Assembly: GCA_965213925.1 (NCBI GenBank)
Contig: OZ243927.1
Location: forward strand, 2,304,001-2,368,000
Direction of reading: 5' to 3'
Length of the DNA stretch: 64,000 bases
From: Trueperaceae bacterium
GTDB lineage: Bacteria > Deinococcota > Deinococci > Deinococcales > Trueperaceae
Under the pieces are notes generated by a model. That model searched no databases. It was not told the DNA's origin and saw only the letters and a program-made list of their open reading frames with translations. Within the stretch, counting starts at the first letter, position 1; every line of letters begins with the position of its first letter. Shown here one piece after another: positions 2,203-51,424 of this stretch. A program made the translations under genes and the position numbers.

Positions 2203-2438
2203 CAGGTGTACCGCCCTCTACATCGTCTTGCGAAGAGGACGAGGGGCGTCGGGTGACTTTGGCACGTCGGTCTCAGTAACACCCGTTCATCTTATCGCTA
2301 ACGCGCATGTAGGGCGTGAATGCGGGCACAAAGCTATGCTTGTGAGTAACTCAGGGGTAACGGCATAGTTGGGGCGGACTCCTTGCGGTGAAGTTGTAGA
2401 TACATGCTGTTCAGACGAGCGTTCTCGAGGCTGCGAGG

Positions 2439-3665
2439 TTGGAGATGGATGAGAAAGAGGTGCGAACGGACATTGTCATCGTAGACGCCGAGCGGCGGGC
2501 GGTGCGTTTGGAAGGGGTCGCGCTCACTGGGGTGAACACATTGCCCAGGGCACTTCGCGCCGCAGTGCGCGAGCGGCTACGCTTAGACGCCGTGCTGCTT
2601 CATGACGGCGGCTTGTCTCTCGGCGAACCGCACGCACCCGTACTCATGGAAGCGTCCGAGCGCTTACCCGCGGACACGACCTCTTGGCGGCAGCCTGCGC
2701 ACGCGAGACCCTGGCAGCAGCTTGGCTGGTTCGCTCAGGCGACGCGGTGGTTGGAGCAAAATCTCAGGGCGCGAGGTGAATACTTGCAAGGCGACGTTCG
2801 GCAGGTCAGTCTCAGCGACCTCGTTTGCGTTTTATACGTGAACACGGACAGAGGTGGCGTCTACTTCAAAGCGAGCGAGACGGCTTTCGAAGCTGTTGTG
2901 ACCTCCTATCTCGCTAATACCTACCCCGACCTCACGCCCAAGGTGCTCGTCCACGACGACGCAAGGGGTTGGCTCGTAACGAGAGACGGCGGAGCGCGTT
3001 TGAGCGCGTCGGCGAGGTTGCAGGACTGGACTGACGCGCTCGAGAAACTCGCCCGTTTTCAGCGTGCTAGCGGTCGAGTCGGGGTCGAAGGCGCGTTCGG
3101 GCACTTAGGGTGTGCGGTCTATCCGTTCGCCGAGCTTTTCGAGCAGGCGAGCGCGTTTTTTGACGACGAGGAGACCTTGGCAGCTTGGGGCTTGCGCGAG
3201 GAGCAGCTCGGGAGGCTCAAGCACCTCTTGCCCACCTTGCGAGACGCGCATAGACGTGTGCAGGCGCTCGAGCTTCCCCTCGCTCGCGCGCACGGCGACG
3301 CTCAACCGATGAATGCTCTTTACAGAAATGCGCGCTGGTTCGATTGGAGCGAGGCGAGTGTGGCACATCCCTTCACCGATGTCGGTTGGTGTCTGGCGTG
3401 GACGCTCAATCCTGCTCGTAAGCTGCCCCTCTTGCGCGCTTACCCGGATGCTCCGGCTCGGTTATGGCGTAATTACCTCCGTGCTCTGGGCGTGCACGGT
3501 GTGAGTCATCTCGACGTAGACGCCCTCAGACGAGACGCGATGAGGTTAGCGCTCGCGCACCGCGCTTTGGTGTGTCACAGAGAATATGCCGACTTCAAGA
3601 GCACAGTTTCGGGTTGGCGACCGCAGTACGTCCCCTACTACTTGAAGCTTTTACTGAGCGTTTAA
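2439..3665 (+). CDS. Aminoglycoside phosphotransferase-like kinase
   Basis: VYFKA, HGDAQPMN and FDWSEA..HPFTD motifs; start may be ATG at 2445. Confidence 0.8.
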   Translation: MEMDEKEVRTDIVIVDAERRAVRLEGVALTGVNTLPRALRAAVRERLRLDAVLLHDGGLSLGEPHAPVLMEASERLPADTTSWRQPAHARPWQQLGWFAQATRWLEQNLRARGEYLQGDVRQVSLSDLVCVLYVNTDRGGVYFKASETAFEAVVTSYLANTYPDLTPKVLVHDDARGWLVTRDGGARLSASARLQDWTDALEKLARFQRASGRVGVEGAFGHLGCAVYPFAELFEQASAFFDDEETLAAWGLREEQLGRLKHLLPTLRDAHRRVQALELPLARAHGDAQPMNALYRNARWFDWSEASVAHPFTDVGWCLAWTLNPARKLPLLRAYPDAPARLWRNYLRALGVHGVSHLDVDALRRDAMRLALAHRALVCHREYADFKSTVSGWRPQYVPYYLKLLLSV

Positions 3666-3749
3666 GACTCTGGTCCCAAATAGGTCTAGTTCGGGCGCTT
3701 CTGTGACGCTTTCGCCTCCAGCGCTTTTAGCCTCGTCTATGCTAGTTTC

Positions 3750-4112
3750 ATGCACCTTCACGCCGACTACCTCCTCCGCATCCGTCAGAGCGTCTTGCTT
3801 AGGGCTAAAGTGCTGAGGCTCGAGCTGTACTTCCCCGAGCCGCGCCGAGGCAGCGATCACCTACTCATCGCCTTAAACGGCAGCAAAGAGAACGTTTTGC
3901 GAATCCCCAACTACCTCTTCGACACCTTCGACAAGATCGACGTCGAACTCATCCGCAGCGAGGAGTCGGACGACATATACCGCATCCTCATCGCCGTGAC
4001 CAAAAAGCTCGACGCGCAACCTGCGACCCCTTCTGAGCAGCGGCGTAAATTGAAGCGGCGCGTGTGGCGCGAAGCCGACCTCAAAAACCCGACACACCGC
4101 CTCAATGTATAA
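3750..4112 (+). CDS. Hypothetical protein
   Basis: ATG ORF with host-like codon usage; no family recognised. Confidence 0.5.
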   Translation: MHLHADYLLRIRQSVLLRAKVLRLELYFPEPRRGSDHLLIALNGSKENVLRIPNYLFDTFDKIDVELIRSEESDDIYRILIAVTKKLDAQPATPSEQRRKLKRRVWREADLKNPTHRLNV

Positions 4113-4177
4113 CTAAGTGCAACTATGAAAATTCTTACAAAAACGCGTCTCTGACGGGCTTTGTGTTAGATTGAGTC

Positions 4178-5059
4178 ATGGCAGATATCAGCATTTTAGG
4201 CATCCCGATGGACCTCGGCGCGGGGCGGCGCGGCGTGGATATGGGCCCAAGCGCGATCCGTCTAGCAGGACTAGAGGCGCGCTTGGAACGCTTGGGATAT
4301 AGCGTGCAGGATAAGGGCAACATCGAGGTCCCCGTCGCTGAGGCGCTGCAGAATAAGAACGGACTGCACTACGCGGACTCCATTCGTGAAACTTGCGCCG
4401 CCGTCTACAGAGAACTTCGCGGCGTATCCAAAGAGAGCTTCCCTATCGCGTTGGGTGGCGACCACTCCGTCTCGATGGGGACCGTGGCGGGCGTCGCGCA
4501 AGAGGGTCGCACGGGCGTCCTTTGGATCGACGCCCACGCCGACCTCAACACGCCCGCCACGAGTCCGAGCGGCAACGTTCACGGGATGCCGCTGGCGCAC
4601 CTTTTGGGTCACGGCGACGAGCGCTTCTTAAAGCTGTGGGGCGGCGGCGCGGTGCTGCGCCCCGAAGACGTCGTTTTTATCGGGCTGCGCAGCTTGGACC
4701 CGGCCGAGCGCCGCTTGATCCGCGAACACGGCATCAAGGCGTATACCATGAAAGAGGTCGACGGGCGCGGCGTCGCGGAAATCGCGGCGGAGGCGCTGGC
4801 GCACCTGCAAACGGAGCGCCTGCACGTCTCCTTCGACGCCGACGTGTTGGAGCCCAGCCTCGCCCCCGGCGTCGGCACGCCCGTCCCCGGCGGGCTCACC
4901 TACCGCGAAGCGCACCTGCTCATGGAACTTCTGGCGGACACCGAGAGGGTCACGAGCCTCGACCTAGTGGAGGTCAATCCGATTTTGGACGTCAAAAATG
5001 AGACAGGGCGCATCATGGTGGAGATGGCGTCCAGCCTGCTGGGGCAAGCGATTCTTTAG
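4178..5059 (+). CDS. rocF: Arginase
   Basis: GGDHS, DAHADLNTP, SGNVHGMP and SFDADVL motifs; leaderless-type TAGATT-N5-ATG start. Confidence 0.95.
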   Translation: MADISILGIPMDLGAGRRGVDMGPSAIRLAGLEARLERLGYSVQDKGNIEVPVAEALQNKNGLHYADSIRETCAAVYRELRGVSKESFPIALGGDHSVSMGTVAGVAQEGRTGVLWIDAHADLNTPATSPSGNVHGMPLAHLLGHGDERFLKLWGGGAVLRPEDVVFIGLRSLDPAERRLIREHGIKAYTMKEVDGRGVAEIAAEALAHLQTERLHVSFDADVLEPSLAPGVGTPVPGGLTYREAHLLMELLADTERVTSLDLVEVNPILDVKNETGRIMVEMASSLLGQAIL

Positions 5060-5163
5060 AAGGTAAGAATAAAATACCTCAGTACATTGTTAACCTAAGT
5101 TCGGAGTTTCCAAATAGCATAAGCATCTCCTAGAATGAGGGTGTTGAAGGCTCAAAAAAGGAG

Positions 5164-6070
5164 ATGCTTAGGACGAGTTTACTAGAATTGTTCTGCGAGG
5201 TGGATGACTTCTGCAGAGGCTTCGCGCTCTGGGCACATAAACAGCAGCTTGCTGAGAGTAGAAAGCGTGGTCCTAAGTGCCGCTTGAGCGTAAGCGAAGT
5301 GATGACGATCATGATTCACTTTCACAGTTCAGGCTACCGAGACTTCAAGAGCCACTACCAGAAACACGTGTGCAAGCAGCTTAAAGGTGAGTTTCCAGCA
5401 CTGGTATCGTACTCGCGCTTTGTAGAACTGACCTCAGAGGTTTTGCTGCCGCTTTGCGCCTATCTGCGAGCGAGTATAGGTGAAGTAACAGGTATCAGCT
5501 TTGTAGATAGCACGCATGTGGCAGTGCGCCACAACAAACGTATTGAACGCAACAAGGTCTTTGCAGGCTTAGCAGCGCGTGGCTGTACCGGCATGGGTTG
5601 GTTCTATGGTTTCGAGCTGCATCTCATCATCAACGATAAGGGTGAACTGCTCGCCGTCTATCTAACGCCTGGCGATACGGATGATCGCAAGCCGCTCGGT
5701 GTACTTACGCAAAACCTGTTCGGTAAGCTTTTCGGTGACAAGGGTTATCTCTCACAAGACCTCTTCGAAAAGTTCTTTGAGCAAGGCATAGAACTCATCA
5801 CGACCATCCGCAAGAACATGAAAAGCGCGCTGAAGCTTGAGGACAAGATTCTCCTGCGCAAGCGGTTCATCACCGTTCGTCCAGCTTGACTGGATCGAAA
5901 CGGTGAACGATCAGCTCAAGAATATCTCGCAGATTGAGCACACCAGACACCGAAAGCCTGCTAACTTTGCTGTCAATCTCATCGCTGGACTCATCGCCTA
6001 TCAGCACCAGCCCAAGAAGCCTTCGCTGAATCTGGGAGCTGACATTGACCCTCTCCCTGTCCTGATTTGA
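5164..6070 (+). pseudogene. IS982 DDE transposase frameshifted by a 22-nt insertion
   Basis: FVDST, GWFYGF, FGDKGY and IETVNDQLK motifs; deleting 5872-5893 gives one 294-aa ORF reading [14 protein letters not shown]. Confidence 0.9.
5872..5893 (+). repeat. 22-nt small dispersed repeat (ACCGTTCGTCCAGCTTGACTGG)
   Basis: 21/22 match to the reverse complement of 51280-51301; interrupted copies at 8225-8294 and 51236-51322. Confidence 0.85.
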
Positions 6071-6135
6071 CTTCGAACTTAGGTTACATGTAAGGTGATA
6101 GAATACAGCCATTCAGCCATATCCCGGAGGTCATC

Positions 6136-6393
6136 ATGTCCCTCGTTTGCATTGGAAGCAAACATCAGATTACGGTTCCCATTAAGGTGCGCAAGGAACT
6201 CGGTTTGGATGAGGGTGATTGGCTTTACGCCGAAGTGGAGGGCAACCGCATCGTGCTTACGCCTCAAGTTGTCGTGGAGCAAGTAGATATTAAAGCGGCA
6301 ATTGCCGAGGCTTTAGAGGATGCAAAAGCGGGACGGGTCTCGCCTGCCTTTAGCTCGTCGGAAGAGTTGCAGGCCTAGCTCGACGAAGAGTAA
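6136..6393 (+). CDS. AbrB/MazE-family antitoxin; orphan, with a probable premature TAG at 6376-6378
   Basis: QITVPIKVRKELGLDEGD motif; LDEE-TAA follows the TAG in frame; no toxin gene downstream. Confidence 0.7.
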
Positions 6394-8161: not shown

Positions 8162-8318
8162 GAAGAGCAATGAGCAACGAGCAATGAGTTGAAAGTAAAA
8201 ATCTTTGATTTTAACTCACTGCTCACCGTTTCGCGTCTGCGAAAACTTCGTAATCGTTCACTACGTGAGGACTTACGTACACCAGCTCGACTGGGTTGCT
8301 TTCAACTCATTGCTTCTT
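8162..8318. repeat. Palindromic GAGCAAT-heptamer repeat with a nested insertion (8225-8294)
   Basis: Arms GAGCAATGAGTTGAAAG / CTTTCAACTCATTGCT; homologous to 51213-51396. Confidence 0.85.
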
Positions 8319-16280: not shown

Positions 16281-17350
16281 GTGGCAAAACGTTACCCAGC
16301 GATTGAACCTTTTGCCTCGGGTATGCTCGAGGTCGGAGATGGACATGAGCTTTATTGGGAAGAGATCGGCAACCCTGAAGGAACCCCTGCTGTTTATCTA
16401 CATGGTGGACCTGGTAGCGGTTGTAGCCCCGGCTCACGCCGCAACTTTGACCCTAACGCTTACCGCGCCGTGCTGTTTGACCAACGAAGTTGTGGGCGTA
16501 GTCGCCCCCTTGCCTCTAAACCTGATGCTGATTTGAGTACCAACACGACCCGTCATCTCACCGCTGATATTGAAGCCCTGCGTCAACATTTTGGTATCGA
16601 ACGTTGGGTTGTTGCGGGTGGTTCGTGGGGCGTTACGTTAGGGTTAGTGTACGCACAACGCTATTCCGAACGAGTAAGGGCTATGGTGCTTGGCGCTGTA
16701 ACTGCTGGAACACGCCGCGAAATAGCTTGGATCACCCGCGATATGGGCAGAATCTTTCCGCGTGAATGGGAACGTTTTGTTGCGCTTGTTCCTGAAGCTG
16801 AGCGTAGCGGTGATTTATCTGCTGCCTATGCGCGGCTCTTAGCCAGCCCTGATCCAGAGGTACGTGAACACGCAGCACTCGAGTGGTGTCAATGGGAAGA
16901 TACCCATGTTTCTCTAATGCCAGATTGGGAACCCAACCCACGTTACCAGGACCCGCAGTTTCGTCTCCTTTTTGCTCGCCTTGTGACACACTATTGGAGT
17001 CATGGTTGCTTCTTGAGCGACGCCGAAGTGATGGTCGGAATGCACCGTTTAGCAAATATAGCAGGTATCATCTGGTTTGAACCAACCTCACGTTATAGAA
17101 CATCGTGTAGCACGCACTTCAAGTGATGATACCTGCGCCATTTCGCTCCAATACTTCCGATAACCGCTATATTCCCGCAATACTTATCCACGGGCGTTGG
17201 GATATTTCTGGTCCTTTGGATATAGCCTGGGCTTTGCACCGTACTTGGTCAAAGAGCGAGTTGCGCATCTTAAATAATGCGGGACATGGAGGAATCGGCT
17301 TTCCTGAAGCGATGACGGCTGCGTTAGATAAATTTCGTGATGCACCCTGA
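16281..17350 (+). pseudogene. pip: Prolyl aminopeptidase disrupted by a MITE
   Basis: HGGPGSG and GGSWG motifs; removing 17059-17169 plus one TA restores RLANIPAILIHGRWD in a 318-aa ORF. Confidence 0.9.
17059..17169 (+). mobile_element. 111-bp MITE, copy 3
   Basis: TA-TAGC...GCTA-TA ends; internal IR GCAGGTATCATC/GATGATACCTGC. Confidence 0.9.
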
Positions 17351-19271: not shown

Positions 19272-19384
19272 AAGCAGGTATCATCTGGTCACTAGTACGC
19301 TTAACTGATAAAGCCTTTTGCTTAGCTATCACATTCATAGATGATACTTGCGTCATTTCAAATTGAGTATTCATGAAACTTCCT
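19272..19384 (+). mobile_element. Degenerate MITE, copy 4, between ylxR and infB
   Basis: GCAGGTATCATCT...AGATGATACTTGCGTCATTTC with a similar tail; no clear TA duplication. Confidence 0.6.
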
Positions 19385-51213: not shown

Positions 51214-51396
51214 GCAGCAATGAGTACCGAGCAATCCAGTCGTACCCGCTTGCGCAGGGCACAGGGCTGGTTATGTAACCCAGTCAAGCTGAACGAACGG
51301 TCTTGCGAAGCAAACGAACGGTGAGCAATGAGTTGAAAGTCTTTGATTCTCACTCATTGCTCGTTGCTTTTAACTCATTGCTTCTTGTTGCTTTCA
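51213..51396. repeat. GAGCAAT-heptamer repeat with multiply nested insertions (51236-51322)
   Basis: Homologous to 8162-8318; contains an intact 22-nt element at 51280-51301. Confidence 0.85.
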
Positions 51397-51424
51397 TCTA
51401 TCTGCTACAAAATAGCGCGCCGCA

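Follow-up and report, generated by a model that had tools for sequence, protein, structure and literature searches.

A probable stack of ultra-small mobile hairpin modules nested in an intergenic heptamer-repeat hairpin of a Trueperaceae bacterium

The stretch of DNA analyzed here, a 64-kb window of a Trueperaceae genome (GenBank assembly GCA_965213925.1, contig OZ243927.1, positions 2,304,001 to 2,368,000), contains at positions 51236..51322 an 87-nucleotide (nt) composite of short hairpin-bearing sequences nested within one another. The surrounding genes are ordinary, encoding a fasciclin-domain protein, SbcD, 4-alpha-glucanotransferase and small unknown open reading frames (ORFs), and the heptamer-type repeats that flank the composite form an arm of a long intergenic hairpin. 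On the minus strand, the host sequence upstream of the insertion (51323..51412) is the part of this hairpin built of GAGCAAT and ATTGCTC units and is kept in both sister species used for comparison, and downstream the heptamer-repeat sequence ATTGCTCGGTACTCATTGCTG occupies 51215..51235. None of the Rfam 15 families matched at gathering score anywhere across the window. Throughout, G000 denotes this Trueperaceae genome (4.75 Mb, 58% G+C, 96.9% complete) and C1 its contig, G001 and G002 are two other species of the same genus, and copy counts were compared with those of reversed-pattern controls.

Read on the minus strand from 51322 to 51236, the composite runs ACCGTTCGT / TTGCTTCGCAAG / ACCGTTCGTTCAGCTTGACTGG / GTTACATAA / CCAGC / CCTGTGCCCTGCGCAAGCGGGTA / CGACTGG, flanked by ...ACTCATTGCTC on the left and ATTGCTCGGTACTCATTGCT... 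on the right (slashes mark junctions here and below). Its outermost layer is an element that we term A, a 22-nt sequence (ACCGTTCGTCCAGCTYGACTGG) made of a 9-nt left end and a right-end hairpin, CCAG-CTYGA-CTGG. The left end of the outer A lies at 51314..51322 (minus strand, as for all parts of the composite), and the same 9-mer also starts 58 A-type copies on C1. At the T/C junction of this outer A stands an E-type module, whose 5' hairpin part occupies 51302..51313 and whose 3' tail occupies 51271..51279; between the two lies an inner, unbroken A at 51280..51301 (C1:2355280-2355301), which has one mismatch to the consensus. The outer A resumes with the first piece of its right-end hairpin (CCAGC, 51266..51270), is interrupted within this right end by a module termed F (51243..51265), consisting of CCTGTG, a hairpin with a GCAA loop and TA, and closes with CGACTGG at 51236..51242. 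The nested string reported in the initial annotation is therefore correct to the base, and the outer element is split as was claimed there, though it measures 21 nt instead of 22, one T of the consensus CCAGCTYGACTGG being absent at the F junction. A second composite at 8225..8294 on the plus strand, ACCGT-TTCGCGTCTGCGAAAACTTCGTAA-TCGT-TCACTACGTGAGGACTTACGTACA-CCAGCTCGACTGG, had been described as split once at the same T/C junction; this split is present (a 24-nt module at 8258-8281), but it is one of two, the other being a 24-nt module at 8230-8253 that separates ACCGT from TCGT.

A is not a chance occurrence. Allowing at most one mismatch, we found 21 copies in G000, 11 in G001 and 36 in G002 and none in 38 other relatives, which belong to 22 more genera of the same family and to four different families; within the family, A is confined to one genus. 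The reversed A pattern had no match in any of the genomes searched. A regular-expression catalogue of A in G000 returned 61 matches, comprising 21 empty copies, 35 filled with modules (of which two rows are artefacts produced by the nested type of locus) and 5 chance-like matches with unrelated interiors of 16, 19, 95, 96 and 154 nt. The surroundings of 58 copies fall into 29 distinct 12-nt contexts. In these copies the preceding base is C in 46, the following base is A in 53 and the next is T in 48, such that the insertion junction can be written as C/A(T); a heptamer-type left flank (GCTC or ACTC) is present in 33 of the 58 and the right flank ATTG in 31. Either arm of a hairpin host can carry A, always in one sense relative to the ATTGCTC unit, and the orientation of A is set by the target sequence. 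According to a crude gene map, 49 of 58 copies of A and 50 of 54 copies of a second family, G (described below), are intergenic, and for both the distribution among tandem, divergent and convergent gaps is close to the background. Neither family has a clear orientation preference with respect to neighboring genes (20 same and 10 opposite for A, 9 and 13 for G).

Modules inside A always occupy the junction ACCGTTCGT/CCAGC, that is, T/C. They include C19/C21 (TCC(C)-TNC-GG(G)A-GACTGCGTAA; 10 copies), D20 (TCCTGCGGAAGCTAAAGCCA; 6 copies), B24 (TCACTRCGTGAGGACTTACGTACA; 4 copies), E24 (TTGCTTCGCAAGAACTAGCGTGTA; 3 copies) and E21 (TTGCTTCGCGAGAGTACATAA; 1 copy without and 3 with an inner A). These hairpin+tail modules, 19-25 nt in length, share a general plan: a T precedes a 3-5-bp stem whose two halves enclose a T-N-C triloop, and the module ends in a tail resembling RRACTNCGTAA. 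In our reading of the catalogue, the T-N-C triloop is closed by C-G in all 24 of the simple modules within A. On the other strand T-N-C reads G-N-A, a triloop that is the hallmark of unusually stable DNA mini-hairpins. An interpretation of the loops as RNA-type UNCG tetraloops was dropped, as the stems fit only with T-N-C triloops.

G is a larger sister family of hairpin+tail modules with the plan TTNNC-loop-GNNAA-AACTNCGTAA. Its pattern occurs 55 times in G000, 68 times in G001 and 73 times in G002 and is absent from the 38 other relatives, and the reversed pattern is absent from every genome except G014, which has one match; a looser structural scan for hairpin+tail modules returned 156 matches versus 28 in the reversed genome. 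Both of the two free stem positions of G are Watson-Crick paired in 45 of 54 copies, through 6 pair types, which shows that structure and not sequence is conserved. G occupies many other hosts, is found in the loops of D20 and C21 (TCCT/GCGG) and inside A at ACCGT/TCGT, and can also form tandems or lie reversed within a loop of its own kind. On the 5' side of 54 copies there is a C at -3 in 45, a C or G at -2 in 50 and a T at -1 in 38, and wherever the empty host of a hairpin+tail module is known this C-S-T triplet belongs to the host. The strand bias of these modules (37 of 54) is not to be used, since the GC skew is very weak and neither origin nor terminus can be placed.

The F module, by comparison, is rarer: 17 copies begin with CCTGTGCCC, 7 of them in right ends of A and 10 elsewhere, for example at GATGA/TACCTGC sites of another repeat family. 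As a separate observation, a repeat family of about 113 copies in G000 with inverted ends GCAGGTATCATC … GATGATACCTGC (for example at 17061-17136 and 19274-19351 of the window) hosts F and hairpin+tail modules, and one of its copies lies directly upstream of a YhbQ-like GIY-YIG gene.

A, hairpin+tail and F modules were each found in other contexts, which disposes of the concern that they might never occur independently, and the catalogue revealed the same nesting grammar at other loci. A graded series is present in G000, from A{E} at C1:953885 and A{E{A}} at C1:2054371 to the locus itself and A{E{A{B24}}} at C1:2938975. The deepest nesting, A{E{A{C21{G24}}}} plus F at C1:163101, comprises five insertion levels. 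The composite A{D20} is present as 6 identical copies in five different contexts, which argues that a filled element still moves as a unit and that nothing but its ends can be required. The Logan contigs from the probable source sample consist, at the locus, of fragmented unitigs from paralogous repeats, none of which spans it; an assembly artefact is nevertheless unlikely, because the nesting grammar repeats at other loci of G000 and in two other assemblies of the genus.

A 995-bp insertion sequence (5091-6085) has an unbroken A in its transposase gene, at 5872..5893 (plus strand). Positions 2-133 of the Pfam domain DDE_Tnp_1_3 stop at 5871 and positions 134-154 resume at 5894 in a shifted frame; A adds an in-frame stop, the codon ATC stands on each side of it, and nothing is duplicated. 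Because this copy sits inside a DDE transposase gene, it cannot be attributed to conversion from a homologous filled site. The insertion sequence is present in 4 copies that are 99.9% identical and all carry A (in the window and at C1:2404920, 2431680 and 3607411), and it was not found in the sister species. With its transposase broken, it is either moved in trans by another source or the interruption is bypassed. Two IS3-type genes also carry A. For annotation, this means that the modules disrupt genes; in this genome, three insertion-sequence families have had transposase genes hit in this way.

The intergenic region of the composite locus is orthologous in both sister species, with about 80-84% identity. 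G000 is filled, reading …AACTCATTGCTC(87 nt)ATTGCTCGG…, and both G001 (…GACTCATTGCTC/ATTGCTTTC…) and G002 (…AACTC/ATTGCTCGG…) are empty; the empty site is exact in both sisters (…CTC/ATTGCT…), and the target is not duplicated. We extended this comparison by matching the surroundings of 47 A positions in G001 and G002 to G000, where 32 had collinear flanks and 19 were aligned, leaving aside multi-copy insertion-sequence matches, one 99%-identical region and four loci with very unequal gaps. In our reading of the alignments, 4 of the 19 loci have an exact empty site in G000 (L080, L108, L111 and the second copy of L099), and in 3 more A is absent with less certain boundaries (L086, L092 and L105). 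At 3 loci the same A copy has different contents: L097 is empty in G002 and filled with a 42-nt module and F in G000, L100 is empty in G002 and holds C21 in G000, and L099 holds different modules in the two species. L112 pairs A with a variant, A' (ACCGTTCGT plus CCCCGAAAGGGG), L101 has A in both species, and L079 is complex. At the remaining 7 loci (L004, L006, L091, L094, L102, L104 and L106) the whole heptamer hairpin is of another repeat flavour. The swapped units are (GAGCAAT)n versus (GGACTGA)n or (CAGTAGT)n, with the flanking genes kept, as would be expected if intergenic heptamer hairpins are replaced as cassettes. Taken together, A, hairpin+tail and F are very probably real mobile micro-insertions. 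The proposal that short hairpins are written into specific targets without duplication is thus supported by the empty orthologues, the stepwise filling, the constant junctions and the clean insertion into a transposase gene, whereas the accompanying suggestion of a new system is weakened, since no dedicated enzyme was found and a precedent exists.

The A element is not limited to Deinococcota. An exact scan for the 22-mer in one genome per species (185,579 species) returned 45 loci, comprising 5 in a Trueperaceae sister assembly, 39 in Chloroflexota and 1 in a bin labelled Alphaproteobacteria. The Chloroflexota carriers are assigned to Anaerolineae, Anaerolineales, Chloroflexia and Candidatus Desulfolinea. 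In these genomes the identical A occupies other hairpin hosts (…CGAAG/A/ATCC…), forms head-to-tail arrays of two or three and is also nested in the loop of its own kind, and relatives of it with another hairpin are present; on one Chloroflexia contig, A is found in some paralogous repeats of a cassette-like array and not in others. Copy numbers there are moderate, although those of the A head exceeded the control in both G041 (30 versus 7) and G044 (25 versus 7). The distribution is patchy, with A in 8 of 81 genomes around G041 and more than one copy in only two of these. No member of the G family was found in the five A-bearing genomes from outside the genus that were examined. Viral contigs contained no match to A, and of their 121 matches to the hairpin+tail pattern only 15 had paired stems, approximately as expected by chance. 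A side observation concerns a Chloroflexia locus (L143; genome G042, C6:36000-55900), a small-ORF array in which composite repeats of about 300 nt, starting with …GCCTAACGTCTCGCAG and ending near …GGTTGTTAGG, recur every 1.1 kb or so and are filled with A and a 26-nt tandem module. The ends of these repeats resemble integron attC core sites.

To our knowledge, ultra-small mobile repeats have appeared in print (2008) only for Nostoc-type cyanobacteria, as the small dispersed repeats (SDR). Elhai and colleagues reportedly described in 2008 that SDR elements nest in each other and in their own copies and sit in tandem heptamer repeats; their hairpin is said to be shared and backed by compensatory changes, and their mobility to have been inferred from related genomes. 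The modules described here resemble SDR in size and number (about 21-27 nt and many dispersed copies, compared with 22 nt for A and 19-25 nt for hairpin+tail modules) and in the fixed-position insertion of A and hairpin+tail modules into a short target without duplication. They also show the mutual nesting, the residence in tandem heptamers and the hairpin kept by compensatory changes (45 of 54 copies) that SDR are reported to have. Unlike SDR, they are hosted by Deinococcota and Chloroflexota and not by heterocyst-forming cyanobacteria, two phyla share one identical element, composites move as units, and nesting reaches five levels. Their behaviour can therefore be called SDR-like, a likeness drawn from the description of SDR. 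According to citing papers, SDR5 is inserted between the third and fourth base of the HIP1 octamer (PMC4390886), no SDR-like repeat was seen outside Nostocaceae among the HIP1-rich cyanobacteria examined (PMC5861425), and further passages on SDR occur in PMC13756078 and PMC3116915. Our search of the literature found no report of SDR-like elements in Deinococcota or Chloroflexota.

Other known systems share some of these features. REP, BIME and REPIN sequences are short, oriented, intergenic hairpin repeats that occur in tens to hundreds of copies and form mosaics; their proposed mover in trans is a single enzyme, RAYT, that recognises the hairpin in single-stranded DNA. The modules share with them the intergenic hairpin, the oriented conserved flank, the short length and the mosaic arrangement, but they are smaller, are nested at fixed junctions and form no inverted doublets, and there is no RAYT in G000 or G002; only in G044 does A lie near RAYT-like genes, two in number. 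IS200/IS605 elements and their gene-less derivatives are recognised through hairpins in single-stranded DNA, of which they need two different sub-terminal ones, and measure at least tens to hundreds of bases. Like them, the modules lack terminal inverted repeats, keep a single orientation and insert on the 3' side of a short motif with no duplication; they differ in having one mini-hairpin of 3-5 bp per module, and G000 has no PF01797 match. Miniature inverted-repeat transposable elements likewise occur in many, often nested copies that are non-autonomous and rely on an enzyme from another locus, but the modules have no terminal inverted repeats, cause no target-site duplication and are five to ten times shorter.

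The nuclease Ssn offers a further parallel. In Chenal et al. 2025 (PMC11893778), this single-domain GIY-YIG protein (cd10448) cuts only single-stranded DNA beside oriented hairpin repeats; the SRM/NTS repeats concerned are 20-50 nt long, occur in hundreds of copies and rarely in genes, and the authors note their likeness to insertion sequences, the activity shown being cutting and not inserting. G000 contains 142 GTCATTCTGA...AAGAATCTC elements that resemble the NTS flanks printed there, and 3 of them carry the A head. On the other hand, A, hairpin+tail and F modules misfit the SRM motif, and the SRM pattern itself is barely above background, with 24 matches versus 13 in the reversed control. 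Aside from this comparison, the interior lengths of the 142 GTCATTCTGA...AAGAATCTC pairs group around 8-9 and 18-19 nt and near 30, 40 and 60 nt, and it looks, from these lengths, as if the loops may grow by stepwise insertions of about 10 nt.

We consider it probable that the locus arose by successive insertions into an intergenic heptamer-repeat hairpin, each specific for site and orientation, which stacked up ultra-small mobile modules that are non-coding and non-autonomous. A lands at C/A(T); hairpin+tail modules land 3' of C-S-T, mostly in A at T/C or in loops of their own kind; and modules bearing passengers keep moving as units, the ends alone being needed. The modules would move in trans as folded single-stranded DNA through a structure-specific nuclease or recombinase. 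For this last step, a trans-acting enzyme that works on single-stranded DNA, our confidence is tentative and somewhat short of even. It is suggested by the behaviour of the modules, which resembles that of substrates read as a hairpin plus an adjacent single-stranded motif in the style of IS200/IS605, RAYT and Ssn, and the preference for the loops and feet of hairpins in other repeats would fit DNA that is transiently single-stranded.

Several points weigh against this reading. No moving enzyme was found among the candidate families tested, and the Y1_Tnp (PF01797) profile had no match in G000, G002 or G041, which have 21, 36 and 19 copies of A, respectively. Each module has a single hairpin, not two sub-terminal ones, and is far shorter than the elements shown to be moved by hairpin-recognising enzymes. 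Whether a given event was an insertion or a precise loss is judged by parsimony among three genomes, and most copies lie in repeats with shared flanking homology, so their spread may be largely due to recombination. The fold of the 87-nt composite is no better than that of shuffled sequence (RNA, z 0.15 and -0.56), which leaves the mini-hairpins as its sole structure; the same result favours selfish DNA over a structured RNA or a terminator design.

A search for master loci next to a recombinase, an HUH nuclease or a reverse transcriptase had been proposed; neither Y1-HUH nor reverse transcriptase genes track the modules. Several other candidates for the mover or its source were rejected. The IS3-like region at C1:1241-1243 kb, considered as a master locus, is a decayed insertion sequence hit by A and no source of it. 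The Y1_Tnp match in G001 is a domain within a 1322-residue methylase-like frame that has no counterpart in G000. This frame, of restriction-modification/methylase type (L270; G001 C4:3782500-3790500, minus strand 2211-6176), holds the Y1-like domain mid-frame between short proline-rich repeats, and the domain may be an in-frame mobile insertion. Small GIY-YIG genes do not track the modules either: the YhbQ-like gene (C1:1995088-1995363 in G000) is syntenic in all three species but also present in at least 4 module-free genera. No Ssn-type GIY-YIG gene was found in G000, which has only the YhbQ-like one; G002 has a second small GIY-YIG gene, an Ssn candidate, with an array of GTCATTCTGA...AAGAATCTC elements upstream. 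The S23p four-helix-bundle protein is also present in module-free genera. Genes of the corresponding family, PF05635 (23S-rRNA-intervening-sequence protein), number 3 in G000 (C1:2994325-2994636, 1223965-1224234 and 1725164-1725397) and have heptamer arrays on both sides, and the single gene of G002 (C8:175498-175812) has a copy of A about 60 nt away. Finally, the proteins common to G000 and 186 kb of Chloroflexota DNA around A are only housekeeping or cassette genes (MaoC, aldo-keto reductase, HTH, RNase Y, pyruvate kinase and GGDEF).

These findings bear on the competing explanations to different degrees. We judge it unlikely, though less so than the other rivals, that there is no dedicated machinery at all and that, after a few rare founding events, homologous or short-homology recombination spread the modules between dispersed repeats, a filled one converting an empty one. 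The route in that case could be gene conversion, template switching at replication forks or, in a naturally competent lineage, the uptake of foreign single-stranded DNA. The flanks do provide homology in the 33 and 31 copies noted above, modules are found at one A junction every time, and the hairpins swapped at 7 of the 19 aligned loci, together with the exchange of A for A' in L112, have the look of cassette replacement. Against this stand the 29 distinct contexts of A, which include the DDE transposase gene where no homologous filled template is possible, its presence in two IS3-type genes and in unrelated hosts of another phylum, and the homology available inside A, just 9 and 13 nt. It is far less credible that the elements are not mobile, being either selected cis-elements such as terminators and protein or RNA binding sites or an artefact of assembly; although the intergenic location of most A copies (49 of 58) would suit such a role and the host hairpins could act as terminators, an immobile element would not be exactly present and absent at orthologous sites or break a transposase gene with an in-frame stop, the gap types show only the background spread, the composite is no more stable than shuffles, and the same grammar recurs in three independent assemblies.

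Two further alternatives name a specific agent, and we regard both as quite improbable. In one, the modules would be copied through RNA, a small RNA from the intergenic hairpins being reverse-transcribed and integrated or priming templated synthesis at a nick, and an RNA intermediate is reportedly favoured for the Nostoc SDR elements. G000 does encode 4 group-II-like RVT_1 genes for a 637-residue reverse transcriptase, the sense-strand GCAA and GAAA loops of F and A' are good RNA loops too, and a short template copied several times over could have produced the 22-nt head-to-tail arrays of Anaerolineae. However, RVT_1 has no match in G001 or G002, which carry 11 and 36 copies of A and 68 and 73 hairpin+tail modules, nor in G041, G042 or G044; orientation follows the target on either hairpin arm and shows no preference relative to genes; and the stems fit T-N-C triloops and not UNCG tetraloops. 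In the other, the modules would be REP-like elements moved specifically by a RAYT Y1 (HUH) transposase, as proposed for REPINs, a possibility that the insertion style (3' of a short motif, oriented and without duplication) would suit. The genome G043 has 10 Y1_Tnp matches, and in G044 (Anaerolineae) hairpin repeats surround a tandem pair of RAYT-like genes, C7:7490-7831, which has an A copy about 360 nt upstream, and C7:8423-8764, which has one about 115 nt downstream; the repeats that directly adjoin these genes are, however, of other kinds and not A. Y1_Tnp is present in 12 of 41 relatives and therefore does not track the modules; 9 other genomes of the relatives sample have it and carry no modules, and the three A-bearing genomes listed above have none.

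A bolder extension of the favored reading, which we regard as unlikely, is that A, hairpin+tail and F represent the smallest class of transposable DNA (20-25 nt, with a 9-nt end and a 4-bp hairpin as the signal), tolerant of passengers, moving between phyla and driven by an enzyme family new to transposition or by a conserved host replication or repair enzyme that works on extruded hairpins. The Nostoc SDR elements would then result from one and the same process, and a tie to the heptamer arrays and to the palindrome GCTCGAGC may exist. Irrespective of this, the genus offers a cleaner system for the study of mobile micro-repeats, with three species, many filled and empty pairs and clear target rules; its composites move as units and so define which ends matter, and the enzyme can be sought by phyletic profiling through the A copies identical in Chloroflexota. 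A mover, if one is found, would provide site-specific writing of sequences of about 20 nt into single-stranded DNA without duplication. In annotation, the modules explain a large share of the unusual intergenic DNA in genomes of this type.

The 8-mer GCTCGAGC is the commonest in G000, with 1751 copies versus about 127 expected from base composition, 4.5 times the number of the next palindromic 8-mer. Together with its heptamer arrays and SDR-like modules, this iterated, HIP1-like palindrome gives G000 the three features that are also combined in Nostoc. Separately, AAGAGGTC and its complement GACCTCTT are each present in about 1500 copies versus about 65 expected from composition, equally on both strands all along the chromosome, possibly as an uptake-type signal or a signal of coding bias.

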